Below are positions 21,679-64,000 of a stretch of DNA of 64,000 nucleotides, one piece after another (positions within the stretch are counted from its first letter, which is position 1; the number at the start of each line of letters is the position of its first letter). The DNA lies in contig JBDKSP010000088.1 in the NCBI GenBank assembly GCA_039680575.1, positions 63 to 64,062 of the forward strand. The letters run 5' to 3'. The notes beneath the pieces are model-generated. The model was not told where the DNA came from. It did not search any database and worked only from the letters and a program-made list of their open reading frames with translations. This DNA is from Armatimonadota bacterium. Lineage in GTDB: Bacteria; Armatimonadota; UBA5829; DTLH01. A program made the translations under genes and the position numbers.

Positions 21679-21811
21679 CTTCTATCACCTGACGGTAAAG
21701 TTGTTTTTCGGACAGATAAAAGTTCTTACCCAGTTTCACCCGAAATATTTAAAATATGGGTAAACTGTAGCTGCTTTACCGGGAAAAGTGCAGCGCATAG
21801 AGGATGGAAGA

Positions 21812-37165: not shown

Positions 37166-37172
37166 GGTTGCG

Positions 37173-38555
37173 CTACTTCGACCTCCCCTCCGAGTTCACT
37201 CCTTCGTCAGTCTGTGCGGTATGAGTCACCTGCACAAGATCGCCGAGGTATCTGTGGGCTGTGAGGTACGCAGAATCAAGCTGGTATAATGATTGCTGAA
37301 GCCCAGTCTCAGCAGATAAGAGATTCACGTTGGCATCAAGCACTTCCAGGTTCGTTCCTACACCTTCTGCAAACCTGCGCTCAGCCAGTCTCAGACTCTC
37401 CCTTGCGAGGTCCACGGCCTTTCGCGCGGACGTGATTGCGCTGTACGCTGTGTCCATGTCCAGATAAGCGCTTCGAACCGATAGCCTCGTGTCATTGGCT
37501 GCGTTTTCAAGTTCAGTGTTGGTCTTTACCTGTTCCGATCCCAGTTCTTCGGCTTGTGCCCGGATGAGTCCGCCGTCAAATACCATCTGGGATAACTGCA
37601 ATCCAACAAACCATTGCGAATCTGTCATAAAGCCTTTCGACCGTGAGACCAGGTTAGCGGACCCGACAATGTCTATCTGAGGTTTTCTATCCGCTTTCAC
37701 GGACTTTTCGAGCCAGAAAAGCGATGATAACCTGTCTGTGATACTCCGGACCAGTGGGTCGGCTTTCACGGCGATTTCCTCCGCCTGAGCTACCGGTTGT
37801 TGAGAAGGAATGTCGAAAAAGCCTCCCTCCAGATCAATCGGAGAGTCCTTGGGCAAAAGTAGTGAAGTCCGAAGATTAGCCAACGCCAGTTCATACAGGT
37901 TTCGTACATCCGTAAGTCGTTTTTTCTGATCTTCAACCGCAGCTTCAGCGCGAATTACATCATAATCGGTAGCAACACCTTCTTTTCGTAATTTCTGCGC
38001 CTGGGATAAGTGCTCTTCATATGATTTGAGTGATTCTTCGTTGACCAGAACACTCTCCCTGCCATAGATTGCCGCAAGATATGTGCGGGTTGTCTGAAGA
38101 ACAATGGAAAGCTCAGTGTTGCTGGCGGTATTTTCTGCCTCAGTTACTCCAAAAGTCGCACTGCGGGTCCTGTAACGGATACGCCCAGCATCGAATATTG
38201 GATAAGCAGCCGAAATGAATGCAAAGTAGACATCCTGGTCAGCTACGGTCTGTCCGGGAATGATAACGGTTGTGTCATTAATTGCAATTGTTTTCGCATC
38301 AAGGGTAATCGGATCATCCAGATGATAGTAACTTGCACTAAGATCAGCATGCCCTTTTCCCTTGCTTTTCACCCGGTCAACGTTCTTAGTCGCAGTGGTA
38401 ATATTCTGTTTGGATGCCTTGATGGTCAGGTTCTGCTGGATAGCAAGGTCAGCAGTACGCGCGAGGTCGAGTTTGATTGGCTGCGGTTGCTCGGCCCGTA
38501 GTGCAGCTGAAGACATGATGCATAAAATCAGTAGTAGTGTGAAAGCTCTTCCCAT
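37173..38555 (-). CDS. TolC-family outer-membrane efflux protein
   Basis: Signal peptide and two repeated coiled-coil/beta-strand halves typical of outer-membrane factors. First gene of the five-gene exporter operon. Confidence 0.7.
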   Translation of the reverse strand: MGRAFTLLLILCIMSSAALRAEQPQPIKLDLARTADLAIQQNLTIKASKQNITTATKNVDRVKSKGKGHADLSASYYHLDDPITLDAKTIAINDTTVIIPGQTVADQDVYFAFISAAYPIFDAGRIRYRTRSATFGVTEAENTASNTELSIVLQTTRTYLAAIYGRESVLVNEESLKSYEEHLSQAQKLRKEGVATDYDVIRAEAAVEDQKKRLTDVRNLYELALANLRTSLLLPKDSPIDLEGGFFDIPSQQPVAQAEEIAVKADPLVRSITDRLSSLFWLEKSVKADRKPQIDIVGSANLVSRSKGFMTDSQWFVGLQLSQMVFDGGLIRAQAEELGSEQVKTNTELENAANDTRLSVRSAYLDMDTAYSAITSARKAVDLARESLRLAERRFAEGVGTNLEVLDANVNLLSAETGLQQSLYQLDSAYLTAHRYLGDLVQVTHTAQTDEGVNSEGRSK

Positions 38556-43644: not shown

Positions 43645-43730
43645 TGGTGCCGAAGGTGGGACTCGAACCCACACAAGGTCGCCCTTACCGGTTTTTGAGA
43701 CCGGCGCGTCTACCATTCCGCCACTTCGGC
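43645..43730 (-). tRNA. tRNA-Leu (anticodon CAA)
   Basis: Reverse complement folds as a class II tRNA with a long variable arm: anticodon loop CTCAAAA, T-arm GGGTTCGAGTCCC, encoded CCA. Confidence 0.9.
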
Positions 43731-49402: not shown

Positions 49403-49640
49403 AAAGTCTGGCTGTGCGAGAGGGATGTCATCGCAGCATAAACCGGTTTTGGCTGTGGTGTGATAGTGGTTTTATCTCCTACAGTGACCGGCACTCCTGT
49501 TGAAGGGCTCCCTGCTCATTAAAATTGCTTGCCTGATTCTTGGCAGTTATGCTATATTGGAACTAAATATACTGCTGACATTGTTTCTGTCTCGGCGTCC
49601 ATTGCCCGTCAGGCACGGTGTGCTTCAACAAGCTGGCAGA

Positions 49641-49665
49641 CGCTTCGGGGATTTTGCCCGAAGCG
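49641..49665. repeat. REP-like variant CGCTTCGGGG-N6-CCCGAAGCG in the long leader of the secreted-protein cluster
   Basis: Same GCTTCGGG/CCCGAAGC core as the other three copies. Confidence 0.4.
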
Positions 49666-49876
49666 CTGACCAAGAAAAGTTCGCGGGTGGACGAAATTGC
49701 GGGCTAATGATGGGATCATCTGTGAGTCCGGTCAATTACGTGGTCGCAGGGATAATCCACTGTCCGGCTGGTACAATTTGTAACAAATCGAACTTGCGCC
49801 ATCGGTATAAAGGCAGGTTGCCTGACCGGCACTTTGCTAACGGTGGTCGTAAAGATTCTTGGGGAGGAAGTTTTCG

Positions 49877-51652
49877 TTGAATCTAAGGAAGCACGAGAGG
49901 CTTTATAGGCTGGTGTCCTGTGTCACGGTGTTTGGATTCATACTGCCGTTGATGCTGACAGTATTTCCGCAGGCTGCTGTAGCACAGTCACAGGCTCAGA
50001 CGCCGATGCAAGTAGGCGTGGTCGAATTCCGTAATGATTCTGGCGTGCAGGGAAGTATGCTTGCCAGGTTTGCTACGGACGCGGTGGTAATCGAGCTCAG
50101 CAAGTCGGACCGCTTTGATGTTATCACAAGAGCGCAGATCGATGCGCAGATGAAAGACCTTGGAATTGCCAACCCGCTTAACAGCGTCGAGCGTAACAGA
50201 TTGGGAGAGGCTCTCTACGCCGATGCTATGATCGAAGGTTCAATCAAGGCAGTCGAACTCCGGGGCAGCGGGTCTACACGCCGTGCTGCCGTCACCATTG
50301 TCATTCGAATGGTCGATCAGTCATCCGGCGAGGTCATTAACGGCGCTATCCAGACAGGTACCAGTAATGTGCGTGTCGGCAGCAGTCCGGACGATGACAA
50401 GCTGATTTCGGAAGCCATTAACAACGCTGCATATCAGGCTGTCAAAACGATGATCGATTACATCATCCCCGAGGCGACAGTCCAGAATACGATCAGAACC
50501 AATGAGATTCTGTTGAATAAGGGTGCCAGAGACGGCATCAGGTTAGGTATGCGGATGATCGTTACGCGGGACCGCGAGATCATTGGGGAAGTCGAGATCA
50601 GGAAGGTAGACCCGGACAACGCGACGGGTTTCATAGTAAAGCAGACACGGGGAATCAGCCCGGAAGACAAGGCTAGAGCAGTATTCGATATGCCGGAGAT
50701 CGCCAGAGTACAGGCGGATTCCGGTACGAAATCCGGTCCTCCTACCGTTTCATCAAAGAAGTCGAGTTCTTTGCCTAAGATCGGTAGAGTGCTCCTGGGT
50801 GTACTTGTTGCCTGGGGTGTATCGAAAATCTTCGATTCTGATGGCACAGAAAGCGTCGGTGGTGTGACCGCTGAAGCAGGATTGTCCGGTTATAACCTGC
50901 CCGTTGAAAGCGGCAGCCCCGGTGTTAGGGTAAAATGGGATGCCAGTAAACTCGGACGCGGCAAGAATGTCATAGAGTATCATATCTGGAGGAACGACGT
51001 AAGCGGTCCAGTGCTTACAGCCCGCGCTTCGGATGGTGTAGCTTTTGATGATGCAAACACCAGGTCTACAGCATATACCACCGCCAACAGCGAGACGAAT
51101 GCTAAGACTACCGGCACGACTACAGTTCCTGCTATGACACTCAGCACGCCTCTTAAATACTGGGTTTCCGCGCTTTATATGGTCCAGTCTTCGGATAGCA
51201 CTCTATATTATGAAACGGACAAAGTTGCTACCGGCCAGGCGACACCTATGTCTCAGATAGCTGTAGCAAATCTCACGCTGCCGGCTGCTGGCAGTCAGCA
51301 GAACTTGCAGAAAGTAACATTTGAGTGGCTTTCCAGAAGAGGCGCGGATGTCTACATAGTTGAAGTTTCAAGCGACCCGACATTCCAGAACCCTGAATAT
51401 GTAAGCAGTCCTGTATACTACTCTCCGGCCGCAGATGGTCAGACGGTAAGGCTGGTGGTATCAGCGTCACTCTATAACTTATTCTCAAGCACAACAAGTG
51501 ATCAACCGATCTGGTGGCGAGTCGGGATGCGGGCAAGTGGAGACTCACCTGGACCAATTCCGGCAAGCGGAAGGTCCAGTATGCGATATTTATATAGTGA
51601 AATAAACTCATTCTATCCGGCTGATACACCTCCGGGCACGCCGGATCAGTAA
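49877..51652 (+). CDS. secreted/lipoprotein-like protein: CsgG/LpoB/FlgO-like N-terminal alpha/beta domain, internal hydrophobic segment, C-terminal Fn3-like repeats
   Basis: TTG start with GGGGAGG 9 nt upstream and a signal peptide (NLRKHERLYR-LVSCVTVFGFILPLMLTVF-PQAAVA). The N-domain pattern VGVVEFRNDSG...RFDVITRAQIDAQMKDL resembles the CsgG-like lipoprotein family. First gene of a four-gene co-directional cluster. Domain call is tentative. Confidence 0.4.
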   Translation: MNLRKHERLYRLVSCVTVFGFILPLMLTVFPQAAVAQSQAQTPMQVGVVEFRNDSGVQGSMLARFATDAVVIELSKSDRFDVITRAQIDAQMKDLGIANPLNSVERNRLGEALYADAMIEGSIKAVELRGSGSTRRAAVTIVIRMVDQSSGEVINGAIQTGTSNVRVGSSPDDDKLISEAINNAAYQAVKTMIDYIIPEATVQNTIRTNEILLNKGARDGIRLGMRMIVTRDREIIGEVEIRKVDPDNATGFIVKQTRGISPEDKARAVFDMPEIARVQADSGTKSGPPTVSSKKSSSLPKIGRVLLGVLVAWGVSKIFDSDGTESVGGVTAEAGLSGYNLPVESGSPGVRVKWDASKLGRGKNVIEYHIWRNDVSGPVLTARASDGVAFDDANTRSTAYTTANSETNAKTTGTTTVPAMTLSTPLKYWVSALYMVQSSDSTLYYETDKVATGQATPMSQIAVANLTLPAAGSQQNLQKVTFEWLSRRGADVYIVEVSSDPTFQNPEYVSSPVYYSPAADGQTVRLVVSASLYNLFSSTTSDQPIWWRVGMRASGDSPGPIPASGRSSMRYLYSEINSFYPADTPPGTPDQ

Positions 51653-51755
51653 GAATTGCTTTCAGCATCGGCCGCACCGTTCGCTATATTGAGATAAAGA
51701 GCGGGCGGCCGACCCGCTACAAGCGGGTCGGGACGACAGGGAGGTACAGGAGAAG

Positions 51756-54752
51756 TTGAACCATAGATATTTACAACTGATGCGATGCAAATGGGCTGTT
51801 ATCTTATTCGCGGTGTTCGTGCTATCCGCGAATGCTGTCGCAGCAGATACTCCGGCAACATCGGCTTATGTACAAAACCAGTTATTAGTCCGGCTCGCGC
51901 CTGGCCTGACTGAAGCCGAGCGAGATGCCGCATTTGATAAGATTGGCGCCAAATTGATCCGCCCTCTGGCGCTTGCAAACACATATCTCGTCGAGCTTGT
52001 GCCTACCCGTGGCGAAACTGTTCAATCTGCAATGACCAGGGCAAGTTCAGTAACAGACATCACTACCGTCGGTCCGAACTATCGAAGATATCCTACTGCT
52101 TCGGTCCCGAATGATACTTTGTGGTCGAAGCTCTGGGGTATGAAGATGATAAACGCGGACGATGCCTGGGATATTACGAAGGGCAGCTCCAGCGTAATTG
52201 TTGCTGTGCTCGATACCGACTTCAGCCTCGATCATCCCGATCTGAAAGACAGATACCTGCCAGGCACGGATACGGCGATGGGCGATGGTGATCCTTCTCC
52301 ATGGGCTCAGAAGGATAAGTTGAGTCATGGGACCCATGTCACCGGTATTATAGCAGCCCAGGGAAACAACAGCGAAGGTGTCGTTGGTGTCTGCTGGGAT
52401 GGAGTAAAGATTCTCCCCATAAAAGTGTTTGCTGACGATGGGTCAGGTGACTCGGCAGCCGTAATAGATGGACTGTATTATGCGAAAGCACAGGGCGCCC
52501 AGGTTATAAATATGAGCCTGGGTGGGGTTTATTCCGATTCTTTCGAGCATGACGCACTAAAAGACCTGTACGCTGCTGGTATTATAATCGTTGCATCCGC
52601 GGGTAATGAGGCTTCGACAGTCAGCTATCCCGCTGCGTATGCTGAAGTAATAGCGGTTTCCGCGTTGGGCGATGATGAACGTCCGGCCGATTACACAAAC
52701 TACGGTTCTGAAATAGATATTGCCGCTCCTGGCGGTGAAGATGTCGAGGATGGCGCAGGTTCTATCTGGAGCACCTGCTGGTCCAAAGACAAAGGGAATT
52801 ATTACTCAGGCTTGCAAGGGACATCGATGGCAGCGCCGCATGTCGCTGGCGCAGCAGCTCTTATGATCTCGTCAGGTATATCACCGAGCCAGGTTACAGG
52901 TATGCTTTACCGCGCAGCAAGATCGCCTAAAGTCGGTGTTCTCGATCCTTTGAAATATGGAAATGGAATTCTCGATCTGTATCAGGCGATGCATGCAAAT
53001 GCTGAAATCAATATAGTAACACCGGAAGATGCAGAAGTACTGGATACAACAACTCCTCAGTTCAAGATATCGACTTATCTTGTCCAGAAGAGCAGTATCA
53101 AGATTTATCTGGACTTTACGGATGCAAATAAAGACGGAACGCCAGATAATCTTGATGAAAGTATCGTGCTGAACGGCACGACAATGGATTCGGATTCAAA
53201 TGCCTCCTGGGATGCCGAAACCAGCACTCTTACTTTGAATTGGCCGTCAGTCGGACAATCTCCACTGTCATCAGGCACTCATACAGTATGCGTTATGGGC
53301 GACCCTGAATCAGGCGCCAATTCCGGGACAGTAAAGGACTGGAAAGTATTTTTTGTAAGACCGAAAGTGATTTCGGCAGGGCGGCACATGTTATCGATTC
53401 CTTATCCGCTGTCGTCGGATGTGACACCTTCTGATTTATTCGGAGGGGATGATTTCTGGTTGGCCAGATACATTCCATCCCAAGATTCTTATGCCACGAT
53501 AAACTATCCGTCGGGAAATGATGAAGATGCTGCCTGGCCGTCGAATCCAGGCGTACATCCGCACGGTGATACTACGGATACTCCTCCTGCGGGTCTAGGA
53601 TACTTCGTCGAGGTACTAACGGATACACCAATTTCAGTAAGTGGAACTGCAGATAAGACCAGAGCTTATGATATTACCTTGACTCGAGGGTCGACCGGAT
53701 GGAATATGATAGGAAACCCGTTCCCATTCCAGGTTGCTTGGGATAGTGTGAAGCTCACATATAGAGGTAAAACGCTGACGTTGAGAGACGCAGTTACAGC
53801 CGGTTGGATTCGTCAGGCTCTGTATAGATATACAACATCAGGATATACATTCGAGAATGATCTTATGAAGGCGGTTCTGGTACCTTGGGAGGGAAACTGG
53901 GTAAGGATACTTCCTGATTATCCGGATAGAAATACCGATACCATGGTCCTAATGGTCCCCCCGGTCGAGTCGACTTCTATTGTAGATGCATCAAAAAGCC
54001 GCGAGGCTACAACCAGCGATGGTTGGTCTGTAAATCTTGTAGCAAAAGTAGGAGATGCTGTCGATTCTCAAAATCTGATAGGTATAGACAGCAGAGCGTC
54101 CGAAGGTTACGACAAGCTTGATGTAGAAGAACCGCCGGTTTTTAACGACTATGTTCAGTTGTCTTTCACGCATAGTGATTGGGTAGACAAAACAGGCCGT
54201 TACGCAAGCGACTTCAGGTCGAGTATAGGGACAGGCAAGACTTGGGAATTTAGCGTCAAAACTGATACATTGAACAAGGATGTTTCGATATCCTGGCCTG
54301 GAATAGCTTCAGTACCGAAGAATTGCCGGCTTGTCCTGGAAGATCTCGACAGCGGTAACAAGGTATATATGCGGACTAGAAACAACTATATATACAACTC
54401 AGGAACAACCGAAAGCTCAAGAAGATTCAAGTTATATGCAGAACCGTCGGACAGCGGTTCTCTGATGATTACAAATGTAGCTATCTCTCAAACGAGAGGA
54501 TCAAGCGTAAGTATTAATTATACGATCTCGCGTGATGCGAGTGTTGAAGTCCGTGTGCGAGATAACAGGAATAAACTGATTCGCAAATTGGGCGGAAATA
54601 CAACTCGCGCCGCAGGGATTAATTCGATGAGCTGGGACTGTGCCCTCAACAACGGAGACCAGGCTCCCAGCGGTCTATATATGGCGGAGATCGTTGCTAC
54701 CGGACCGGATGGTGAGGTGGCAAAGACTATCAGGCCGATTCTGGTAAGGTGA
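51756..54752 (+). CDS. secreted subtilisin-like serine protease (peptidase S8) with I9 propeptide and ~550-aa C-terminal extension ending in a FlgD-Ig-like/T9SS-CTD-like domain
   Basis: Signal peptide and I9-type propeptide. Catalytic triad blocks VAVLDTDFSLDHPDL (Asp), HGTHVTGIIAA (His), GTSMAAPHVAGAAAL (Ser). The C-terminal 350 aa are paralogous to the next gene. Confidence 0.85.
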   Translation: MNHRYLQLMRCKWAVILFAVFVLSANAVAADTPATSAYVQNQLLVRLAPGLTEAERDAAFDKIGAKLIRPLALANTYLVELVPTRGETVQSAMTRASSVTDITTVGPNYRRYPTASVPNDTLWSKLWGMKMINADDAWDITKGSSSVIVAVLDTDFSLDHPDLKDRYLPGTDTAMGDGDPSPWAQKDKLSHGTHVTGIIAAQGNNSEGVVGVCWDGVKILPIKVFADDGSGDSAAVIDGLYYAKAQGAQVINMSLGGVYSDSFEHDALKDLYAAGIIIVASAGNEASTVSYPAAYAEVIAVSALGDDERPADYTNYGSEIDIAAPGGEDVEDGAGSIWSTCWSKDKGNYYSGLQGTSMAAPHVAGAAALMISSGISPSQVTGMLYRAARSPKVGVLDPLKYGNGILDLYQAMHANAEINIVTPEDAEVLDTTTPQFKISTYLVQKSSIKIYLDFTDANKDGTPDNLDESIVLNGTTMDSDSNASWDAETSTLTLNWPSVGQSPLSSGTHTVCVMGDPESGANSGTVKDWKVFFVRPKVISAGRHMLSIPYPLSSDVTPSDLFGGDDFWLARYIPSQDSYATINYPSGNDEDAAWPSNPGVHPHGDTTDTPPAGLGYFVEVLTDTPISVSGTADKTRAYDITLTRGSTGWNMIGNPFPFQVAWDSVKLTYRGKTLTLRDAVTAGWIRQALYRYTTSGYTFENDLMKAVLVPWEGNWVRILPDYPDRNTDTMVLMVPPVESTSIVDASKSREATTSDGWSVNLVAKVGDAVDSQNLIGIDSRASEGYDKLDVEEPPVFNDYVQLSFTHSDWVDKTGRYASDFRSSIGTGKTWEFSVKTDTLNKDVSISWPGIASVPKNCRLVLEDLDSGNKVYMRTRNNYIYNSGTTESSRRFKLYAEPSDSGSLMITNVAISQTRGSSVSINYTISRDASVEVRVRDNRNKLIRKLGGNTTRAAGINSMSWDCALNNGDQAPSGLYMAEIVATGPDGEVAKTIRPILVR

Positions 54753-54775: not shown

Positions 54776-57460
54776 ATGCTACGAACAGCAAAAATATTTG
54801 CCATTGTATTGTCGGCAGTCGCTTTGATCGTGCTGTCTGCCCCCGTATTCGCGCAGGATTATACTGCCGGTACCAGTAACGAATATCTGTTGGTAATGAT
54901 GGGTCAGCAGGAAGATGTGTATGTATACGAGCCAGAAGAAAAGCCTGTCGAAAAGCCAAGGTCAGGCCGGTGGGTGATATATACTGTCAAAGGCGATCCG
55001 GAAATATCGGATGATGATAATATTCCGTTGGTAAGGACAGCGGCTGACGGTGGACCGGGATGGAGACATGGGTTCACAACCATAAGAGTAGATAATACCA
55101 GTGAAATATTCGGAGATACTTCTCGCGGAGCTTGGGTGCTTTATCCATATATAAGTGATAAAGAAACGGGCAACTATGTGGGACTTACAGGGCAATATGT
55201 GTGCGGCCTGTGGTATGTTAACGCATCGGCTATAACTGCAAGATTCCGAATGGCGCTGGTAAGGGACCAGGTGAGGCTTGAAGTAGTACTGACCAATTAT
55301 GACACCAAATCACATTATGTTGGTCTGAGACACTGCTGCGATGTAACAACCGATGGAAATATAGATTCCATAACGCATCCGTATGTTCCAGGCAGTGGAG
55401 TTGTAATGGCTGAGACCGATTATTTAGGGTCAGCAATACCGGACTACTTTGAAATGTATGATAGTATCAGCAGTCCCAAGGTAGCAGTGAGAAATACTCT
55501 AAACGAGCAGGATGCAACTGCACCTGACAGAGCAGCATTCGGTTCCTGGCAAAATATGCAGGGAAGCGATTGGGACTTTACCGCTATACCGGATAGAGCT
55601 GTAGGGGATTACGGCTGGGCGCTCTGGTGGGCGCCTGCGCTCCTCAATCCACGTGAATCCAGGACAATTATCACTTATTTTGGAATGGCAGCAGCTACCA
55701 GTTCTTGGACATCAGATAGCGGCAGCATTGGGTCAGTGCCAAAGCAGGATCCTTTCTGCGTGGCAGTGCAGGGACCAAAATCACTCAGTATAGATTATGA
55801 TTCAAGCCAGTCATCCGATACGATGCTGCAGACTAATCCGTTCAAGATAAAAGCATATATATACAACCTGTATACTGGTGATACGACACTGAAAGATGTT
55901 CAAGTTCACTTAACCTTACCGGACGGATTAGAGTTGGTAGACGGGACCGCTACTCAAGAGATAACCAGCATACCGCCTGAAAGCGAAGGACTACCAGTAA
56001 GCTGGAATGTAAAGGCAACTGGTAAAGTGACAGGCACGCTCGATTATATCGTAACAGTTAGCGGCTCGCCGGGGTTACAAAAGCAATTGACACGTAGTAT
56101 AGTAGTCCCTTCTACAGGGACTACTCAGATACAGACAGGATGGCAGATGATCTCGACGCCATTCAAATTCGAGGATTCAAGGATAGAAGAAGCTCTGAAT
56201 CTGGCGGATGATACTTATAGCGCATCATCATGGAATCCTCAGACACAAAGTTATGATACTGTTACGAATATAGCCCCTGGTAAGGGGTACTGGTTAAAAT
56301 CAACTATAGATAGGCCGACTACAAGAGTATCGACTAGCGCGAAACCTTTGTCGGGAGCTGAATCATATTCAATAGACCTTTATACTGGCTGGAATCAGTT
56401 TGGAAACCCGTACATTTATCCTATTCCTTGGGGAAGAGTAAGGGTTTTGGGGACAGCACAGGACGGACTGCTTACGATAGACGAGGCAGTTTCAAAGAAC
56501 CTCATCAGAAAGACTATTTACTGGTGGGATACTGCCGCTGGTGAATATAGTATGTCATCAGATGAGATGGAAAATCTGGTTCCCTGGCAGGGGTATTGGA
56601 TAAAAGCTAAGCAGCCATGCCAGTTGATTATTCCTGCAGTCAGTGAGATAGGTGCAACCTTAAGTGGAGATACTACGAGAAGTAGAGGAAAAGCATCTTC
56701 TGCTTCCAGTACGACGAAATGTGATGGATGGAACCTAAAACTTGTGGCGAGAGCGGGAGAAGTTGAAGATTCCACAAATTATATAGGTATCGATAGCCGT
56801 GCATCGGACACATACGATTCAGCGGACATAGAAGAGCCGCCATCACCCGGTGATTATGTCAGTATAAGTTTTCCACATACGGATTGGGGAGCTAACAGCG
56901 GTAATTATCTTTCGGACATCAGAAGATCCACAGGTGGGACACAGACCTGGGAGTTCAATGTAACATGTGATAAGAAAAATACGGATGTTGTATTGACATG
57001 GCCGGCTTTATCTGGTGTATCGAAAGATTATACTCTGAAAATGACTGATGTAGACGGCAGCTTGACCAGATATATGCGGACTACAAGCTCATATAAATAT
57101 AACTCTGGCGAAGGTGGAGTAAGAAGGTTTAAGCTTGTTGCCGAACCAAGAGGTAATAACAGCTTAATTATAAGCGGACTTGGAATAAATACTTCTCGAG
57201 CGAACGGCAGCGCAACGATATCTTATAATCTTTCCGCGGATGCGTCTACTGATGTCAGGATCAAATCGACTTCGGGCAGGATGGTCCGTAGCCTGGCCAA
57301 AGGTAGAGGCGTTACAAGAGGAATTAATAATCTTACCTGGAACTATCGGGATGAAACCGGAGAGGCGGTTCCTGCTGGCAGTTATATGCTGGAAGTAGTG
57401 GCAACTACACAGGAGGGAGAGGTCGTTAAGACGATACGGCCATTCCTCGTGGCAAGGTAG
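54776..57460 (+). CDS. large secreted protein of unknown function sharing the ~350-aa C-terminal module (including the FlgD-Ig-like end) with the S8 protease
   Basis: ATG at 54776 with GGAGA Shine-Dalgarno and a signal peptide (MLRTAKIFAIVLSAVALIVLSAPVFA). Residues from GWNQFGNPYIYPIPW to the end align block by block with the protease C-terminus. Confidence 0.6.
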   Translation: MLRTAKIFAIVLSAVALIVLSAPVFAQDYTAGTSNEYLLVMMGQQEDVYVYEPEEKPVEKPRSGRWVIYTVKGDPEISDDDNIPLVRTAADGGPGWRHGFTTIRVDNTSEIFGDTSRGAWVLYPYISDKETGNYVGLTGQYVCGLWYVNASAITARFRMALVRDQVRLEVVLTNYDTKSHYVGLRHCCDVTTDGNIDSITHPYVPGSGVVMAETDYLGSAIPDYFEMYDSISSPKVAVRNTLNEQDATAPDRAAFGSWQNMQGSDWDFTAIPDRAVGDYGWALWWAPALLNPRESRTIITYFGMAAATSSWTSDSGSIGSVPKQDPFCVAVQGPKSLSIDYDSSQSSDTMLQTNPFKIKAYIYNLYTGDTTLKDVQVHLTLPDGLELVDGTATQEITSIPPESEGLPVSWNVKATGKVTGTLDYIVTVSGSPGLQKQLTRSIVVPSTGTTQIQTGWQMISTPFKFEDSRIEEALNLADDTYSASSWNPQTQSYDTVTNIAPGKGYWLKSTIDRPTTRVSTSAKPLSGAESYSIDLYTGWNQFGNPYIYPIPWGRVRVLGTAQDGLLTIDEAVSKNLIRKTIYWWDTAAGEYSMSSDEMENLVPWQGYWIKAKQPCQLIIPAVSEIGATLSGDTTRSRGKASSASSTTKCDGWNLKLVARAGEVEDSTNYIGIDSRASDTYDSADIEEPPSPGDYVSISFPHTDWGANSGNYLSDIRRSTGGTQTWEFNVTCDKKNTDVVLTWPALSGVSKDYTLKMTDVDGSLTRYMRTTSSYKYNSGEGGVRRFKLVAEPRGNNSLIISGLGINTSRANGSATISYNLSADASTDVRIKSTSGRMVRSLAKGRGVTRGINNLTWNYRDETGEAVPAGSYMLEVVATTQEGEVVKTIRPFLVAR

Positions 57461-57526
57461 TTCAGTTTGTTTGAAATGAGATATCGCAGGTTAATTGATA
57501 GGACAGGCTGGAAGGAAGATTTGAAT

Positions 57527-60500
57527 ATGATAGGGGTATGCAAGCGACTAGCTCTAGTTCTGGTATTTATTTTCGGAATAATGAGCCCGGTATATGCGAA
57601 TTTGAGTGGAGGAACAGTCGGGCCAGCTCATCCGACTGTCAACTCAATTTCGAATATTAGGTCAGTATGGGAAGTCGAAGACCAGAAAATACCAGATACT
57701 GAGGTATGGAGAACATACGAATTAGGTAGAAACCGGCTTACTACGGCATCAGCATGGCAAGTAAATCCTAGTTACTATAGTCTGCAGCCGGACCCGGATG
57801 CGACAATAACGGAGACTTATAATGCAGTCGATGTCGTAGAATCGGTCTATGTAGAGGTGGATGGAAGTGGCAATATTGTACTTCCTGAGAATGCTGTCGG
57901 TATAAAAGGCGTCTGGATCGACCGATGGCAAAGGAAGAGTGTGTGGCCTGGCGGCGCATTTACTGGAAACACGATAACAAGCGCCCAAGTAACACTTCCT
58001 GCAGGTATTGCACATGTATTTGTATCCTATTATAAAGCGGGAACAAATCTGATACATGTCGAGAATGCGCCTCTTCCAAGCGAATATACTGTATATAAAT
58101 ATCCAGTAACTGCTGGCTTGAAAAAGATTGTTATAAATCCGGAGATATTAAGGTTGGATCCGGATACCGCCGGATTAAGAAATGGCGGAGATGAATGGAA
58201 TAACCTTCTAGGCGTATACGATAACGAGTCTTTGAAGGGTGTAGACTATGCCGCAAGCAGGAATATCGACACAGCCTCATCAACGATATCGTTTAGCAGA
58301 ACCGTAAGCAGCAATGTCAGGAACCTTTACGTAAAGGTATCTACATATGCTATTGATTATGTCAGTATAAACGGTAATCAAGTGCTTCCTACCAGCTATG
58401 ACCCGGATACAGGAGAGATAGTGCTTCCGGAAGAAGTAACAACCGGGCAGGCGGTGGAAGTATCATATCGCCCTCTTGGAAGAAATGTTGTGACGGTAGC
58501 CCAGGTTCCAATAACAGCGGTTACCTCAGTGAGTAGTGAAAACGGTAATTGCACAGTCCAGGGATTTGATGCAGCTACTGGGAAGATAACACTACAGGAT
58601 CCTCTAGAACAGGGAACAAGAACTCTATATTGCGTATATACAGCCACTGATATGCAAAATGTCACAGGCGAAGGTTCATGGAGTTGGATGGAAGGTGGCA
58701 AACCATTTCCTATTGTACGCGAAAGCGACGATCAGGATCAGCGGTATGCTTCTCTGCAGCCGGATCCCGCAACAGGTGGCGTAAGGGTTAAAGGCGGTCA
58801 TGTGAAGTATGGGCCGTATAGACTAGATGAATGGGTGTTCCATGGTGTAGATAGAGTTGATGATGAAGATGCTGTTGGCGTAACCATGCTGGATGGCGAT
58901 GGTAAGACAATAACAACAACAGGAATCGTCGACGCGGCTGATGATAATTGGGGGTGGACTGGTATATTCCTGTTGCCTGCTCATGAACCAGTCCTTATTA
59001 AAAGTGTAATTATATCAAGTATCATAGATGGCGAATTCGTAACGGATAACTATGCGGAGTTCGCCCAGATAATGGATATCAAAACTGCTGCAGGTGACAC
59101 GGTTAGGGGTATTTACATAGATACGGACACAGCGGATGTAGGAGAAAGAGCGTTTGCTGCCAGAATATCGTACTATGTAAGTGGGAAAAACATGGTGTTG
59201 GTGCCAGGACCTTTGCCTATGCCCGCGACAGTTAGAGAAATAGACCTCGATAATCTTTTCCAGCCAAGGTCTAACTTATTGAGGATCAACCCGAATTTGA
59301 TTCAGTTTGATCCTGACACTGAAAATTGGAGAGCAAACGCCCTAAGTACCAATTTATTGGACGGATATAATGTCCTGGGTGTATTCGATAACGCAAACCT
59401 GACAGGATGGAACTATTGGACTCCCGGATCCGGAAAAATAACAATAGATGCAACCGGCGCTGCAGTTTTGCAGTTGAATTGTGTTCCTACGAGTTCAGTT
59501 ACTAGATTATTCGTTAAAGTATCGAGCTATGCCGTTGATGGTGTTTTTACTCAGTCAACCGGCGGAGCTAATTATTATCCAGGCAGATTAGCGGATGCAT
59601 TAGCAACAGATCCAGGCAATGATGTAATGAACGATGGCCATGATTATGCCTGGTACGATCCTAATATCACATCAGAGAAGCTGGAATCTACTGGATACGC
59701 GGAAACCAGAATTGGCGAAATTCACCTTGCAAAGTCATTGCCTGCAAGTGGTCAAGCTGTGTACGTGTCTTGGCGGAAATTGAGCAGGAAGAGTGTATCG
59801 CCTGCGCGACCTCGTGTTATGGCTGTTCCAGTATTCCAATATCTGGGAGATCCGGATATGCCGATGGACGAGGATGAGAATCCTCCGATAGATGCGATAG
59901 GATATCTTTCCGCAACTCCACCGGTAAATTCGGTCAGATTAAACTCATCAGGAAGCCTGCCGGAAGGCACCCAGAATGTATACTACATGGAATACCATGC
60001 GGGAATGTGTGTTGGCGGCACAGCTACATCGGCAGTATACGTCTATGGGTTATTAAGATTTACATTCCAGCCGATGTATATCGTACCAGCTGAGAGTTCT
60101 GCAACGGAGTTTGTATACAGACTTGCTGTAAGCGCTGGGTTGAATATGAGTAAGGCCATACAGCAGCCTTCATATGATTTGAATGATCGGACCAACAATC
60201 TTCTTCTGATGGACCCAAGAGCTCATCCGGTGGACTATGCACCGCTTATAAAAACTGAGCAGGGTAGGATAGACCCAATAACTCGTGAATTTGAGTTTTA
60301 TGCAGCTTCACATCCGGATAAATTGGGTTCGACTCCAACAATATCTCAAAAAGGGCCAATCAGCACGACTGTGCATGCATCAACCGTAGGGCGTGGTACG
60401 GATGGTACTGTTGATTATGGTGGAACCTATCGATATGGGTATGGGCTTGATTGGCTTACAAACTACAATACAGATCCGGATTTCCCAGTAAGCTTTGCTG

Positions 60501-63500
60501 GCGGCGACCCGTTAACACCGGTTATGCCATCTCCGATAGTCTCTGATTCGATAATCAGCGATGATGGAGCATCGAGCACAACATATACGTTTAGAGTTCG
60601 CTATTGGAACAAGGATAACATTCCTCCAAGAGCATGGCTAAAACCGTGGGCGGATGAATCTGGCGCTTCCGAATCAACGGGTGTTGTATTGTATCTTGAC
60701 CTGATGAATGTTCTCGATATTCCAGCAGAGAGCAGTCAAAGCAGCTATAGGCCGCACTTTATGACAAAGGAGTACACAGCCGATAACGACTATACAGACG
60801 GATGCGATTATATATATACAATCGCGCCGTCATCATCGAATGAGTACATATCCCTGATAACTGGAACATATCATTATTTCTTCGGATGTTCGGACGATTC
60901 GCTTAAATTAGATGATATGGATGATAACGTTGTTACAGATGATGACATTTTGCTTTTCGATGGTCAGCTGTCTGGCACTAGCTGGGCTAATTATGATCAA
61001 ACTAGCAGGACACTTACCCGTTCCAGTACTGGCCTAGATCCTTTCGAGCCAAGAAGCCTTAATGACAATGACGGCAGGCCTTGGATGCCGAGAGATATGG
61101 GTAGACGTTATAGCGCCTTCGGTGATGATAGTCCAGGCAGACCAATTAAGGATGAACCGGGTCCGCAGGATTGCCAGATATATGTCGACAGGCAGGATAG
61201 AGCACCGGGTCAATTCGAGTTCCTCTATCCTCAGCAGTATGAGTGGAAGTGTATAGAACATCCTGATATATCGATTACATTGAGTGGGTATGGCAGTAAA
61301 GCTGCCGATGGTTTCCCGAGGTTCTTTGGGACAATAAGTCCATTCTATAGAGCAGTAAACCCGAGCGAAGGTACACCGTGGGTATATGCCGGCTTCGGTT
61401 ATATGGCTTCACGCATGGAATCTTGTGGCGCCACGACTTCGACTATGCTTACGTTCAAGGTCAAGTGTTATCAGAGGGATAATACTGCTCCGCTCTGGGT
61501 GAAGGTCTTCATAAACAATGAGAGTATGAAGATTCTCGATTACAATACAGGGCAGTCGATGAAACCGGAGAACGGCGGTTATACAGGCTATACAATGATG
61601 CCTGCTGCCGTCCAAACATCGGAGTATCAGTCACAGACAGCGCCATACGATTATTCGCTTGGTGTTGATTACGAGTTCAAGACCCAGCTTCCCGCCGGGC
61701 CGCATACCTATTTCTTTATGGCAAACGATGGTATAGCGACTGCGCTTTATCCTGCAAGGCCTGAAGGAGATAAATGGATTGCAGGTGTACAGCAGAATGA
61801 TGATGCCGGATTCGATAACAATTACTGTCCGGGACCATATATCAACAATGCATGCCAATTGTTGACCCCGAGCGTAACTCCGGCGACTGGTATCCAGGGA
61901 CAGCAGTATGTATACAGGGTGCTATATAAAGATGCCGATGGGCAGCGCCCGTATAAGACAAAGATATATATCGATACAGGTACCACAAGTGGCGTAATAT
62001 CGGTAGATATGCTCAAAGAGGACCCATCCGCTTCTGATTATAAAAATGATGGCGTATGGTATGTGCTAAATACTGCAACGATGGAGGATCGTACACTTGC
62101 TAAGGGTGTAAGGCGCTATAGATTCGAGTTTACCGATGACTGGGGCAGGCCTGACGATCCTAACGACGCAATAGAAGGTCAGATGACAAACTATCCAGCG
62201 TCTGGCTCCTGGGTAGATGGTCCTACTATCGGTGAGAATGTACCTCCGACACTAAGGTATGGGAAGATAGAGAGCCCGGATGGTACGGCAAACGGAGCTA
62301 CGCTTTGGGGATTCGAAGTTGAATATAAAGACTTAAATAGCGATGCTCCCAAGTATGTAACTCTATACACAGGCAGATTACAAGATGATGGTACCACGAT
62401 AGAGTGGGACAACGGGACTCAAATGTCACAGGCCGACCCCGGTGACAGTATATACAGTGATGGTTGTGATTTCGTGTTGCAGAAGAGGCTGGAGCAGGCA
62501 TTAGATCCTACAGATGATGCGCCTACATATTATTATGCGTTTGAAGCGTCTGATGGTATAAGCCTGGCGACATGGGTAGGAGAAGATGATCCGACAATTG
62601 ATAAGATCTCTGAATCAGCGGGATGCCTTCTCAAGGAACCGCTTACAACAACGGATTATCTGACTTATTCCTGTAGTAAAACGCCTATTGTAGGGACGCT
62701 GCAGAACCAGCCGACAGATGCCGGTATTCTTATAGACCCGATTGTTTGGGCTTATATGAATGGCGATACGGCAAACCCGGTAATTTTGAGCCGGAAAGAC
62801 GAGTATGTATGTAAAGGCGTAAACCAGAATCTAACAGGAGCGAACACTGTATCTCGATATTACCCGGCAGATCCTCCGGGTTCGGATTTGATTCCGGTTG
62901 AGGCAATAGACCCGGCATATAAGCCGGACATTACTGAGGTTATTGGTGTATATGATAATTCCAGCTTAACAGGAACGAATTATTTCCTTGCGGATGATGG
63001 TACACCAGGAACATATTCAAGTACAAGTTTCATGATAACCTTGCAGAAGAGTCTCCCCTATGGTCAAAACTGGGTGTGGATCAAGTATAACCATAGCGGA
63101 AATCATTCTTATACGCTGGACCGGTGGAACGGTGAATTTACCTTCGATGAGGCAATGGATTCTACAGATGTGTTAGTAGTAGACTATTTCTTCGGAACAA
63201 AACACGAAATTCCGATAGGAATAAATATACCGCCGACATTGAGTAGTCCAAAGCTTACACCGATGGTAGGCGGATCCGGCACAGACTTCGTATATTCTAT
63301 AGAATATAAGGAGACTGAGGGGACGAATGGTCAAGCGCCATCGTTTGTTAGGGTCGTTATAGACGGTGTAGAGCACACGATGAGCACGACAGTGTCGGAT
63401 ACACCGTCCTATAGATCAAGCGTAGTATATAAATATACCGCGAAGCTTGAGAGCGGCGCGCATGAATATTACTTCACTACCAGTGATGGTGTGGGACTGG

Positions 63501-64000
63501 TAACATTACCGGAGGTGAATCAGACTACCGGAAAAATAGAGGCATACGTTGGACCATGGGTGAATAATTCACCAGCGCTCAGCGATGGATCAGCGACACC
63601 GAACCCGGATTCCGGAAGTATAAGTACGACGCAGAGTGTAGTGTATTCGGTAACTTACAGCGATCGCGACGGTGATTTGCCGATTACATTAGCTCCGTTC
63701 GCCAACGATCTGGGAGCGGCAGACGAAATAAAACTTATGAAGTTCCCGATGCCGCTGCTATACACGGACAACACAAATGAGACCTGGAATGTCGGAATCG
63801 TCGATGATATTATCGAAGACCCGGCTCAACCTGGTAAATACAGGTGTATTCGTGTTATGGGAAGTGACGGTCAATCAGCGAGTTATAAAGTAGACCAGTT
63901 TGCTGGAAAGCTGATACAGTTCATTGGCGGTGATCTGGACGGAAGAGTCTATCTGATTGCCAACAATACCAGCAACGTCCTCAAACTGATGACGGATGAC
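57527..64000 (+). CDS. giant repeat-rich secreted protein, 5'-partial view: more than 2,158 codons open to the window end
   Basis: Translated by hand codon by codon from the ATG at 57527 to position 64000 without a stop. GGAAGGAAG Shine-Dalgarno 9 nt upstream. N-terminus MIGVCKRLALVLVFIFGIMSPVYA is a signal peptide. Contains at least two repeated module families. Missing from the ORF track because no stop lies in the window. Confidence 0.8.
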   Translation, partial: MIGVCKRLALVLVFIFGIMSPVYANLSGGTVGPAHPTVNSISNIRSVWEVEDQKIPDTEVWRTYELGRNRLTTASAWQVNPSYYSLQPDPDATITETYNAVDVVESVYVEVDGSGNIVLPENAVGIKGVWIDRWQRKSVWPGGAFTGNTITSAQVTLPAGIAHVFVSYYKAGTNLIHVENAPLPSEYTVYKYPVTAGLKKIVINPEILRLDPDTAGLRNGGDEWNNLLGVYDNESLKGVDYAASRNIDTASSTISFSRTVSSNVRNLYVKVSTYAIDYVSINGNQVLPTSYDPDTGEIVLPEEVTTGQAVEVSYRPLGRNVVTVAQVPITAVTSVSSENGNCTVQGFDAATGKITLQDPLEQGTRTLYCVYTATDMQNVTGEGSWSWMEGGKPFPIVRESDDQDQRYASLQPDPATGGVRVKGGHVKYGPYRLDEWVFHGVDRVDDEDAVGVTMLDGDGKTITTTGIVDAADDNWGWTGIFLLPAHEPVLIKSVIISSIIDGEFVTDNYAEFAQIMDIKTAAGDTVRGIYIDTDTADVGERAFAARISYYVSGKNMVLVPGPLPMPATVREIDLDNLFQPRSNLLRINPNLIQFDPDTENWRANALSTNLLDGYNVLGVFDNANLTGWNYWTPGSGKITIDATGAAVLQLNCVPTSSVTRLFVKVSSYAVDGVFTQSTGGANYYPGRLADALATDPGNDVMNDGHDYAWYDPNITSEKLESTGYAETRIGEIHLAKSLPASGQAVYVSWRKLSRKSVSPARPRVMAVPVFQYLGDPDMPMDEDENPPIDAIGYLSATPPVNSVRLNSSGSLPEGTQNVYYMEYHAGMCVGGTATSAVYVYGLLRFTFQPMYIVPAESSATEFVYRLAVSAGLNMSKAIQQPSYDLNDRTNNLLLMDPRAHPVDYAPLIKTEQGRIDPITREFEFYAASHPDKLGSTPTISQKGPISTTVHASTVGRGTDGTVDYGGTYRYGYGLDWLTNYNTDPDFPVSFAGGDPLTPVMPSPIVSDSIISDDGASSTTYTFRVRYWNKDNIPPRAWLKPWADESGASESTGVVLYLDLMNVLDIPAESSQSSYRPHFMTKEYTADNDYTDGCDYIYTIAPSSSNEYISLITGTYHYFFGCSDDSLKLDDMDDNVVTDDDILLFDGQLSGTSWANYDQTSRTLTRSSTGLDPFEPRSLNDNDGRPWMPRDMGRRYSAFGDDSPGRPIKDEPGPQDCQIYVDRQDRAPGQFEFLYPQQYEWKCIEHPDISITLSGYGSKAADGFPRFFGTISPFYRAVNPSEGTPWVYAGFGYMASRMESCGATTSTMLTFKVKCYQRDNTAPLWVKVFINNESMKILDYNTGQSMKPENGGYTGYTMMPAAVQTSEYQSQTAPYDYSLGVDYEFKTQLPAGPHTYFFMANDGIATALYPARPEGDKWIAGVQQNDDAGFDNNYCPGPYINNACQLLTPSVTPATGIQGQQYVYRVLYKDADGQRPYKTKIYIDTGTTSGVISVDMLKEDPSASDYKNDGVWYVLNTATMEDRTLAKGVRRYRFEFTDDWGRPDDPNDAIEGQMTNYPASGSWVDGPTIGENVPPTLRYGKIESPDGTANGATLWGFEVEYKDLNSDAPKYVTLYTGRLQDDGTTIEWDNGTQMSQADPGDSIYSDGCDFVLQKRLEQALDPTDDAPTYYYAFEASDGISLATWVGEDDPTIDKISESAGCLLKEPLTTTDYLTYSCSKTPIVGTLQNQPTDAGILIDPIVWAYMNGDTANPVILSRKDEYVCKGVNQNLTGANTVSRYYPADPPGSDLIPVEAIDPAYKPDITEVIGVYDNSSLTGTNYFLADDGTPGTYSSTSFMITLQKSLPYGQNWVWIKYNHSGNHSYTLDRWNGEFTFDEAMDSTDVLVVDYFFGTKHEIPIGINIPPTLSSPKLTPMVGGSGTDFVYSIEYKETEGTNGQAPSFVRVVIDGVEHTMSTTVSDTPSYRSSVVYKYTAKLESGAHEYYFTTSDGVGLVTLPEVNQTTGKIEAYVGPWVNNSPALSDGSATPNPDSGSISTTQSVVYSVTYSDRDGDLPITLAPFANDLGAADEIKLMKFPMPLLYTDNTNETWNVGIVDDIIEDPAQPGKYRCIRVMGSDGQSASYKVDQFAGKLIQFIGGDLDGRVYLIANNTSNVLKLMTDD

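Follow-up and report, generated by a model that had tools for sequence, protein, structure and literature searches.

Near its end the window (the whole stretch of 64,000 nucleotides analysed here, from an uncultivated Armatimonadota bacterium) carries the greater part of a cluster of six genes on the plus strand, whose products are, in this order, a CsgG/LpoB-like protein, an S8 subtilase, p903, a giant protein (from here on the giant), p270 and a Big_1-headed probable outer-membrane barrel. The gene for the giant is the fourth in this vertically conserved envelope cluster; the preliminary description of this DNA had taken it for the last of its cluster, but two further conserved co-directional genes lie beyond the window edge.

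Re-translation confirmed the uninterrupted frame claimed for 57527-64000 (plus strand), which is 2,158 codons long without a stop. Upstream of 57527, its first ATG, the stop codon of the gene before it closes the frame. By our own estimate a stop-free run of 2,158 codons would arise by chance with a probability of (61/64)^2158, about 1e-45, and the frame is therefore not attributable to chance. An independent Logan assembly (contig L009), which matches the window at 19,225 of the 19,225 overlapping nucleotides (100%), shows neither an in-frame stop nor a frameshift and carries the frame on to a stop at window-equivalent position 66,553. With this identical contig the gene is complete at 9,027 nt (57527 to window-equivalent 66553), of which the window holds the 5′ 72% (57527..64000), and its product has 3,008 aa, a mass of 326 kDa and a pI of 4.5. 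The preliminary description had also considered an assembly collapse of repeats, which is no issue because 57000-64000 contains no tandem or direct DNA repeats. The orthologues of the giant are collinear and 47-76% identical to it; compared with the orthologue at locus L001 (76% identity) dN/dS is 0.13. These results show a genuine gene that is kept under purifying selection.

The product is rich in Thr, Gly, Asp, Ser and Tyr (T 8.6, G 8.5, D 8.5, S 7.7, Y 6.0%), in keeping with the composition first described for it, and begins with a signal peptide (aa 1-24; 57527..57598, plus strand), read from the sequence by eye and kept in four orthologues. Judged again by eye, MIGVCKRLALVLVFIFGIMSPVYA|NLSGG at the N-terminus follows the n/h/c pattern of Sec signal peptides and is kept in all orthologues; from this peptide the giant is predicted to be exported through Sec. 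A signal peptide alone accounts for transport to the periplasm, not for passage across an outer membrane. Among secretion signals no T1SS/RTX repeats, TPS domain, autotransporter barrel or T9SS type A/B CTD model was found in the giant.

The giant is almost wholly β-stranded and strings together some 25 small sandwich domains: two A-units, three linker domains assigned to no family, nine B-modules, one inserted domain and one Ig-like domain, with a GWN domain and a tail at the end. The two types of recurring module noticed at the outset are real, but they are detected by profile-profile and iterated-HMM comparison only: BLASTP of the giant against itself gave no internal match at E<=0.01, while the iterated HMMs found nine copies of B and six of an 'a' sub-repeat.

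The A-units, of about 270-320 aa each, are composed of small β-sandwich sub-domains. A-unit 1 (aa 130-396; 57914..58714, plus strand), supported by hhalign, iterated HMMs and an AlphaFold model, contains three 'a' sub-repeats of about 50 aa (58205-58357, 58361-58471 and 58526-58651, plus strand; iterated HMMs). A-unit 2 (aa 514-836; 59066..60034, plus strand; hhalign and iterated HMMs), with 'a' sub-repeats at 59372-59539 and 59687-59776 (plus strand; iterated HMMs), is its divergent duplicate, the two aligning with an hhalign probability of 98%. An isolated 'a' sub-repeat (aa 1805-1857; 62939..63097, plus strand; iterated HMM) follows linker domain L3 (aa 1685-1803; 62579-62935, plus strand). 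Linker domain L1 (aa 837-1002; 60035..60532, plus strand), which was assigned to no family, and linker domain L2 (aa 1133-1291; 60923..61399, plus strand) were found by hmmsearch in 22 and 29, respectively, of about 150 distant giants. Structure prediction, one of the checks proposed earlier, succeeded for one A-unit and failed for the B-module region: the model of A-unit 1 is confidently all-β (pLDDT 83.8, pTM 0.77), whereas that of aa 1001-2158 (pLDDT 39) is unusable. The A-unit model has no whole-unit match in the PDB; at the level of its predicted sub-domains there is a weak similarity (Z <=6.2 over about 80 residues) to Ig-like domains from phage fibres and from the S-layer proteins Sap and SbsC.

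Five of the nine B-modules, each about 100 aa long, lie complete in the window and a sixth is truncated by its edge (all plus strand; iterated HMM): module 1 (aa 1003-1129; 60533..60913; E=1e-25), module 2 (aa 1292-1409; 61400..61753), module 3 (aa 1443-1543; 61853..62155), module 4 (aa 1574-1684; 62246..62578), module 5 (aa 1903-1995; 63233..63511; E=9e-30), which is the cleanest copy and served as profile seed, and the start of module 6 (module aa 2016-2216; 63572..64000), which is interrupted by the inserted domain of about 160 aa (aa 2033-2193). The profile searches suggested for the repeats gave a match to a solved structure and none to a Pfam model: positions 1-94 of the 100 of the B profile align with residues 818-901 of PDB 6fhj_A (E=8.3e-15, 58.7 bits), the entry of the xanthanase PspXan9 (PMC10049358), with the common signature P-T-L-S...G..ST.F.Y...Y.D....P....V.IDG....M...D..Y.DG..Y.Y...L..G.H.Y.F...D. 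Membership in a Big_1/Big_13-type Ig family was rejected, since no score reaches the Pfam gathering threshold (Big_13 on the B consensus 15 bits, cutoff 27; Big_1 on the 6FHJ segment 20 bits, cutoff 34.9). The B-module is probably not the xanthan-binding CBM84 itself, because the structure of the CBM84-bearing xanthan lyase is absent among the best 60 of 553 matches, the last of these 60 having an E of about 0.3, and because the 'PspCBM84' construct begins with DGRVYT at about residue 876 (PMC10049358), near the end of the aligned stretch.

B-modules occur in 3,837 representative protein clusters (50% identity; E<=1e-3) from bacteria and from Lokiarchaeota and Thermoplasmata archaea, where their partners are typically extracellular (PPC, PKD, LTD, MAM, FG-GAP and β-helix domains); sub-threshold matches to AMPK1_CBM, X25 pullulanase and Big models are also seen in B-module proteins. 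The module represents a large Ig-like family with one solved representative and no Pfam model and is, together with the GWN domain, a ready candidate for a new family model.

Upstream of the giant the cluster begins with the CsgG/LpoB-like exported protein of 591-597 aa (49877..51652, plus strand; Pfam CsgG 30.5 bits, cutoff 20.8, and LpoB), whose CsgG/LpoB-like domain is N-terminal and which ends in a PP tail, PADTPPGTPDQ (51617-51649, plus strand). The S8 protease already noted in the cluster (51780..54752, plus strand; Peptidase_S8 E=3e-55) is a subtilase whose prodomain is fervidolysin-like; it has an internal GWN domain (53637-54038, plus strand; E=1.7e-11) and a terminal FlgD_ig-like domain (54483-54704, plus strand). 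The exported protein p903 (about 900 aa; 54776..57460, plus strand), found as the exact protein also on L009, likewise has a GWN domain (56348-56734, plus strand) and a terminal FlgD_ig-like domain (57203-57412, plus strand), and over its last approximately 410 aa it shares 38% identity with the C-terminal part of the S8 protein. Beyond the giant follow p270, a membrane-anchored protein of about 270 aa with an LpoB/CsgG-like domain and a transmembrane helix, and the Big_1-headed protein, of which Pfam and PDB profiles recognise the N-terminal Ig-like domain only and which, from its sequence character and a terminal Phe, is probably an outer-membrane β-barrel. Only the protease among the cluster products has a confident family assignment.

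The same six genes are present at L001, L003, L004, L005 and L009, and the same cluster surrounds distant giants at L010 and L011 (30-41% identity), again downstream of coaE, L011 being without the Big_1 gene at that position. Within Armatimonadota the gene order is conserved over a range of protein identity from 76% to about 30-40%, in most loci at the same chromosomal site, and the gene for the CsgG/LpoB-like protein has orthologues in all loci. The neighbours include polA, rpsA and coaE, with no phage genes among them. Glycoside hydrolase genes stand beside several loci (GH116 at L001, GH2 at L003, GH36 at L010, GH65 at L011). The ABC/HlyD/OEP genes of the window (33750-38555) are 19 kb away in the opposite orientation and look like those of an efflux system.

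At its C-terminus the giant has the Ig-like domain, then the Trp/Tyr-rich GWN domain and then an L-D-x-P-P-x-x-P tail. The Trp-rich C-terminal GWN domain is common to the giant, the S8 protein and p903 (or pX at other loci); it occurs in 64 of about 150 B-module giants tested, other regions of the giant in 18-56. In protein P0035 an S8 domain 54% identical to the window's protease stands inside a giant-type body; together with the common GWN domain this speaks for a functional link. In some relatives the GWN domain is followed by a FlgD_ig/Por_Secre_tail-like domain. A terminal [DE]xPPxxP tail is common to the giant, the CsgG-like protein and p270, is found in the latter two at all close loci and ends 19 of 152 giant-type proteins, with 0.045 expected; within the window the motif occurs in one real ORF only. 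Judged from these sequences, A-units, B-modules and a GWN C-terminus, encoded in a CsgG-like/S8/pX cluster that is orthologous at L001, L003-L005 and L009-L011, define an Armatimonadota family of giant proteins. Since the GWN domain matches nothing in Pfam or the PDB (nor in NCBIfam), its role in docking is a conjecture.

Literature searches found nothing on Armatimonadota envelope proteins or on the system of this cluster, and because no component of the cluster has been characterised, the function of the giant is still inferred. We lean to the view that it serves the cell envelope as a structural protein, forming a fibre or coat that most likely is displayed at the outer membrane or attached to it, with dedicated partners for assembly and processing. 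The TolC-like OEP gene in the window is counted towards a diderm host, and an outer membrane was seen by cryo-EM in the Armatimonadota species F. sacchari (PMC11535203). For localisation, docking, protease and ligand we infer the following: Sec would export the giant; the GWN domain and the PP tail would be the address that docks it where the protease and p903 (via GWN) and the LpoB-like proteins (via the tail) sit; the N-terminal A-units and the B-modules would project outward, with polysaccharide as a possible ligand in view of the B-module's homology to an accessory module of a secreted enzyme that hydrolyses polysaccharide; and the co-encoded subtilase would probably mature or trim the assembly.

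A bolder form of this proposal, which we put forward tentatively and think rather less likely to hold, is that GWN domain and [DE]xPPxxP tail are the address labels of an undescribed envelope-assembly system, widespread in Armatimonadota, in which a dedicated set (CsgG/LpoB-like protein, p270, Big_1 barrel and subtilase) would export, dock and mature the giant at the outer membrane. If true, surface proteins would here be sorted or anchored by a new pathway whose logic is comparable to that of the SLH, T9SS-CTD and sortase systems, and the two docking signals would represent a new way of attaching proteins to the diderm envelope and a means of tracing the surface proteome of Armatimonadota, a widespread phylum with few cultured members.

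Of the other explanations, the best placed, which we nevertheless consider unlikely, is that of a periplasmic or envelope-spanning scaffold, reaching for example from the outer membrane to peptidoglycan or inner membrane together with the LpoB/CsgG-like proteins and p270. The Sec signal is the only one evident, no signal for outer-membrane translocation having been found; two partners have LpoB/CsgG-type periplasmic domains, one of them also a transmembrane helix; the locus is vertically conserved beside rpsA-coaE, like a core envelope function and not like a variable adhesin; and the periplasm of F. sacchari is unusually wide (55 nm) (PMC11535203). Against such a scaffold speak the fusion of B-modules elsewhere to typically extracellular domains, the FlgD_ig/Por_Secre_tail-like domains, typical of surface cargo, in which distant giants end, and the adjoining probable outer-membrane barrel, which suggests an outer-membrane step.

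The preliminary description had favoured a surface adhesin or S-layer-type protein, which is supported in part; a modular exported protein is what was found, whereas RTX/T1SS, SLH and S-layer family domains were not. A true S-layer protein, self-assembled into a two-dimensional lattice over the cell and matured by the subtilase, is less probable again than the scaffold: neither SLH nor another S-layer family domain was found, the structural matches of the giant are generic Ig-like sandwiches, and typical S-layer monomers are far smaller than 326 kDa.

We doubt still more that the giant is a polysaccharide-capture scaffold, a long multivalent carbohydrate binder that tethers the cell to extracellular glycans or harvests them. 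Homology of the B-module to the accessory β-sandwich of PspXan9 would fit, yet carbohydrate binding by the matched module is putative and the module is probably not CBM84; the matches to AMPK1_CBM, X25 pullulanase and Big models point the same way below threshold, with no catalytic domain or curated CBM family detected; and the glycoside hydrolases beside several loci, in a phylum with conserved polysaccharide catabolism (PMC11535203), vary from locus to locus and lie outside the conserved module. An artefact, be it a non-coding long ORF, a misassembly, collapsed repeats or a prophage tail-fibre gene, is ruled out by the identical independent assembly, the lack of DNA repeats and the dN/dS, next to collinear orthologues at at least seven loci, the phage-free neighbourhood of polA, rpsA and coaE and a BFVD search with no match at E<1e-3.

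The giant can be set beside several known systems. Clear homology links the B-module to PspXan9 (GH9 endo-xanthanase of Paenibacillus sp. 62047/P. nanensis; PDB 6FHJ/6FHN), in both cases within a secreted protein; in PspXan9 one copy, one of three C-terminal modules, is appended to an enzyme, whereas the giant lacks a catalytic domain and carries nine. Giant adhesins with Ig-like repeats on the surface of diderm bacteria (for example SiiE, LapA/MpIBP-type RTX adhesins and Bap-like proteins) have an uncleaved C-terminal T1SS signal and RTX repeats and no N-terminal Sec signal, whereas the giant has a Sec signal, lacks RTX (neither the window protein nor P0001 and P0003 at full length gave a HemolysinCabind/RTX match) and ends in GWN domain and PP tail; its repeats are highly divergent at about 25-30% identity, in contrast to near-identical tandem copies, and within the cluster there is no dedicated T1SS (ABC transporter, membrane-fusion protein, TolC) beside it. 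Two-partner secretion (TpsA) was rejected, as the giant has no Haemagg_act or other Pfam match and the barrel candidate shows Big_1 and Invasin_D3 only, with no POTRA/ShlB.

Compared with the S-layer proteins SbsC (Geobacillus) and Sap (Bacillus anthracis), which the giant resembles at the level of generic small β-sandwiches, it is 3-4 times larger and without their SLH/anchoring modules, Pfam and NCBIfam having revealed no S-layer domain (SLH, CWB2, SbsC-type N-terminus and similar). Nor is it T9SS cargo, as it lacks a type A/B sorting domain (TIGR04183/Por_Secre_tail); among curated models the S8 protein and p903 match FlgD_ig only, and TIGR04183 misses the window's proteins. Precomputed matches to Por_Secre_tail and CHU_C exist for P0167, a distant fragment. 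Although no sorting machinery was found for the GWN proteins, their arrangement recalls the address logic of SLH domains, T9SS CTDs and dockerins: the giant and the protease carry the C-terminal GWN module in common with a third exported protein, and the genes for all three are neighbours.

The preliminary description had read an uninterrupted frame on the plus strand from the ATG at 57527 to position 64000, and translation bears this out with 2,158 sense codons and zero stops. The stop of the preceding gene closes the frame on its upstream side, the ATG at 57527 is the first one, and we estimate that random sequence would yield so long a run with a probability of (61/64)^2158 (about 1e-45). 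The gene is missing from the ORF track solely because, as had been supposed, the tool omits ORFs that run off the source. An exact look-up of the sequence of p903, the uncharacterised protein encoded next to it on the upstream side, in public assemblies found a Logan contig from SRR15035646 (L009), which matches the window without a single difference over their overlap of 19,225 bases and, extending past 64000, continues the frame to a stop at window-equivalent position 66,553. The complete gene of 9,027 nt encodes a protein of 3,008 aa (326 kDa mature, pI 4.5, 21 Cys), here called the giant.

Because the protein modules of the giant share only about 25-30% identity, 57000-64000 is free of direct DNA repeats, whether tandem or dispersed, which removes the concern of an assembly collapse. 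The gene has withstood both objections foreseen for it, an in-frame stop or frameshift (L009 identity) and a collapse of repeats (no DNA repeats); an artefact is excluded. Collinear orthologues of 3,015-3,146 aa were found at 76, 59, 47 and 47% identity (the close clade), and comparison with the 76% orthologue (pN 0.14, pS 0.60, dN/dS 0.13) indicates that purifying selection acts on the gene.

The giant begins, as first described, with a signal peptide (aa 1-24; MIGVCKRLALVLVFIFGIMSPVYA followed by NLSGG) that is kept in all orthologues and that, judged by eye, combines a basic n-region with a hydrophobic core of 12 residues and a V-x-A motif for cleavage. The richness in Thr, Tyr, Asp and Gly is likewise found (T 8.6, G 8.5, D 8.5, S 7.7, Y 6.0%). 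The recurring modules are real and are seen by profile methods (sliced profile comparison), not by BLASTP: self-BLASTP gave no internal repeats at E<=0.01, nor did hhalign in self mode. An N-terminal region (aa 25-129) is followed by A-unit 1 (aa 130-396), a spacer (aa 397-513) and A-unit 2 (aa 514-836; hhalign probability 98% versus A-unit 1), each A-unit containing 'a' sub-repeats with the consensus VLGVYDN..LTG.NY....G.ITL...LP.G...V.V.Y. Then come the linker domain L1 (aa 837-1002), the module B1 (aa 1003-1129), L2 (aa 1133-1291), B2, B3 and B4 (aa 1292-1409, 1443-1543 and 1574-1684), L3 (aa 1685-1803), an isolated 'a' sub-repeat of about 50 aa (aa 1805-1857), B5 (aa 1903-1995) and B6 (aa 2016-2216), which is split by a 160-aa insert within which the window ends. 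Beyond the window lie B7-B9, an Ig-like domain (aa 2618-2793) and a C-terminal domain named GWN after its invariant G-W-N (aa 2793-3007), the chain ending in ...SLDMPPASPVGSGK. Searches of Pfam and NCBIfam with the giant and its full-length orthologues found no family at a threshold as loose as E<=1, and phmmer of the giant against the PDB gave no match. An AlphaFold model of aa 1001-2158 from six closely related rows was discarded (pLDDT 39).

A profile built from 14 copies of the B-module (A4) was used in an exhaustive HMMER scan of 1.84 billion representatives, which found 3,837 B-module proteins at E<=1e-3, of which 590 reach E<=1e-30. The highest copy number is 50, in a protein of 6,784 aa. 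The named carriers are MAG proteins of Armatimonadota, Lokiarchaeota and Thermoplasmata; among the archaeal ones, P0038 (Lokiarchaeota), P0134 and P0119 (both Thermoplasmata) have multiple B-modules. The fusion partners are of extracellular types (PPC, PKD, LTD, MAM, FG-GAP, beta-helix/NosD), and none of the copies is above a Pfam threshold. The profile matches one solved structure, 6fhj_A residues 818-901 (E=8.3e-15), which belongs to the GH9 endo-xanthanase PspXan9 of Paenibacillus sp. 62047 (PMC10049358; PMC11002231). This match identifies the B-module as a bacterial Ig-like beta-sandwich, homologous to one non-catalytic C-terminal module of PspXan9. It is probably distinct from CBM84 itself, because the 'PspCBM84' construct starts at DGRVYT (about residue 876), where the aligned stretch is nearly over (PMC10049358), and because the CBM84-bearing xanthan lyase is absent from the best 60 of 553 PDB matches listed (last E about 0.3). 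The B-module is a large unannotated Ig-like family of bacteria and archaea that lacks a Pfam model and has a single solved homologue.

How widely the giants themselves occur depends on the search. In a word-indexed homologue search the whole giant yielded 5 relatives, the B profile a single one and the GWN profile 10 fragments; alone, this search would wrongly suggest an orphan family of five members; the exhaustive scan gave thousands of B-module proteins and dozens with the full architecture. A GTDB scan was limited to three loci because its patterns are specific to the close clade. When the best matches of the exhaustive scan, about 150 distant giants, were searched with HMMs from slices of the family alignment, A-units were found in 18-24 of them, L1 in 22, L2 in 29, the insert in 56 and GWN in 64. 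Every named member with the full architecture belongs to Armatimonadota. Sub-repeats are reshuffled and amplified in the distant giants, for example as runs of a unit of about 70 aa in one of them, P0052.

The window comes from a chromosome, with polA, rpsA and coaE ahead of the cluster. At five close loci (L001/L002, L003, L004, L005, L009) the gene order is CsgG/LpoB-like (about 590 aa), S8 subtilase (about 990 aa), p903 (about 900 aa), giant, p270 (about 265 aa) and Big_1/Invasin_D3 (about 650 aa), after which the genes vary from locus to locus. The giant gene had been taken for the last of the cluster, which is incorrect, since those for p270 and the Big_1/Invasin_D3 protein come after it. 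Loci were also checked for two distant giants, P0061 (2,866 aa) and P0170 (4,097 aa), whose C-terminal domains are about 35-40% identical to those of the close clade; every gene present around them is orthologous (29-41% identity), again 3' of coaE. This conservation shows that the cluster is old and has been passed on vertically rather than as a mobile adhesin island. At one of the two distant loci, L011, the Big_1 gene is missing at its cluster position.

Between coaE and the first cluster gene lies an unusually long non-coding gap (about 470 nt, 49403-49876), which may be a promoter or leader region; the 126-aa TTG ORF listed at 49500-49880 looks spurious. A scan of the whole window placed no Rfam family in this gap at the gathering threshold, the sole Rfam matches being two tRNA genes at 43648-43730 (-) and 6909-6980 (-). 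GC-rich perfect hairpins follow the CsgG-like gene (intergenic, 51700-51718) and the giant gene (11-bp stem, window-equivalent about 66563-66588, L009 21788-21813); they might act as terminators or stabilise transcripts, dividing the cluster into smaller units. Scanning for promoters and terminators did no better than with shuffled sequence, and the same holds for the terminator total.

The GWN domain, which ends the giant (L009 about 21130-21775), is also present in the S8 protease (aa 628-761, 53637-54038, E=1.7e-11) and in p903 (aa 534-662, 56348-56734, E=3.6e-16). It comprises about 130-215 aa, is rich in Trp and Tyr with the pattern GWNQ[IF]G ... Y.W.WD ... PW.GYWI, and its profile has no match in Pfam or the PDB; we regard it as a candidate new anchoring or assembly domain. 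At the distant loci the S8 and p903 orthologues terminate directly past GWN. In the clade of the window the two proteins share a C-terminal cassette of 410 aa (GWN, middle region, FlgD_ig; 38% identity), the p903 profile matching only FlgD in the PDB. The giants fall into two C-terminal classes. GWN is terminal in 34, of which 19 close with [DE]xPPxxP plus 0-6 residues (0.045 expected from shuffling of their last 60 residues). In 30 giants 130-260 further residues follow GWN, and 19 of these giants finish with a hydrophobic stretch and a terminal Arg; at least one of this class, P0072, has a Pfam FlgD_ig match in the extension, and the cassette shared by S8 and p903 also ends such distant giants.

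At every close locus three unrelated proteins share a C-terminal tail of the form [LIMV]-[DE]-x-P-P-x-x-P plus 0-6 residues, namely the CsgG-like protein (PADTPPGTPDQ, 51617-51649), the giant (L009 21730-21775) and p270 (comparison locus L001, 19130-19942). At the distant loci it ends the giant and the LpoB-like protein, the latter without the acidic residue. The window has 138 stop-to-stop segments that are 100 aa or longer, and among these the acidic form occurs in the CsgG-like ORF only. This terminal PP motif could be a docking or sorting signal.

In p270 the tail is preceded by a signal or anchor, an LpoB/CsgG-like 'TVLVFPFDN' domain with a weak GNA1162-like match, a Lys-rich stretch, a transmembrane helix and an acidic linker. 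The Big_1 protein, encoded outside the window (L001 20067-22007; comparison locus L010, 19495-21432), has one N-terminal invasin-type Ig domain, then about 500 Gly/Tyr/Ser/Asn-rich residues of alternating hydrophobicity and a C-terminal Phe (...FRVEFNVGQF). Its profile matches only invasin-type Ig domains in the PDB, and to judge from the character of its sequence it is probably an outer-membrane barrel. An Armatimonadetes MAG protein of 2,853 aa (P0035, MBI2844315.1) contains a prodomain and an S8 domain inside a giant-type body (aa 1053-1443), the S8 domain being 54% identical to the stand-alone protease of the window; this fusion points to a functional link of the protease with the giant.

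The giant is thus a real, selected, Sec-signal-bearing chain of about 25 small beta domains, encoded in a conserved six-gene neighbourhood whose members have domains and a terminal motif in common. That it is real and has not been characterised is well documented; as to its function, we infer a structural role in the envelope, as a fibre or coat component. GWN and the PP tail would dock it where the protease, p903 and the LpoB-like proteins also attach. Processing of the assembly would fall to the subtilase, and polysaccharide may be a ligand of the distal A- and B-modules. Sugar-binding modules are often rich in Trp and Tyr, and GWN is rich in invariant Trp and Tyr.

A serious rival is a scaffold that stays in the periplasm or spans the envelope. 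The giant showed no signal for translocation across the outer membrane, and Armatimonadota are diderm, the periplasm of F. sacchari being 55 nm wide (PMC11535203); apart from this envelope, literature searches on a giant, S-layer or FlgD_ig system of Armatimonadota gave nothing relevant. In the window a TolC-like OEP gene marks a diderm. It lies at 33750-38555 (-) with genes for a two-ATPase-domain ABC protein and an HlyD-family adaptor, probably an efflux system, which appears to have no link to the cluster of the giant; two further minus-strand ORFs lie at 31439-33750. Further rivals to the fibre or coat component are a true S-layer protein and a glycan-capture scaffold. The giant failed the defining test for an SLH-type S-layer protein, the domains that define a T1SS/RTX adhesin, TpsA/TPS protein, autotransporter or T9SS cargo are missing, and a phage fibre or prophage was rejected for want of phage context and of a BFVD match.

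The putative barrel of the Big_1 protein carries its Ig-like head N-terminally, whereas in intimin and invasin the order is reversed. The giant itself belongs in kind to a familiar class, the modular Ig-like envelope proteins; new are the unnamed but very widespread B-module, the arrangement of the A-units, the occurrence of GWN and the PP tail across a dedicated cluster, and the depth to which this cluster is conserved.
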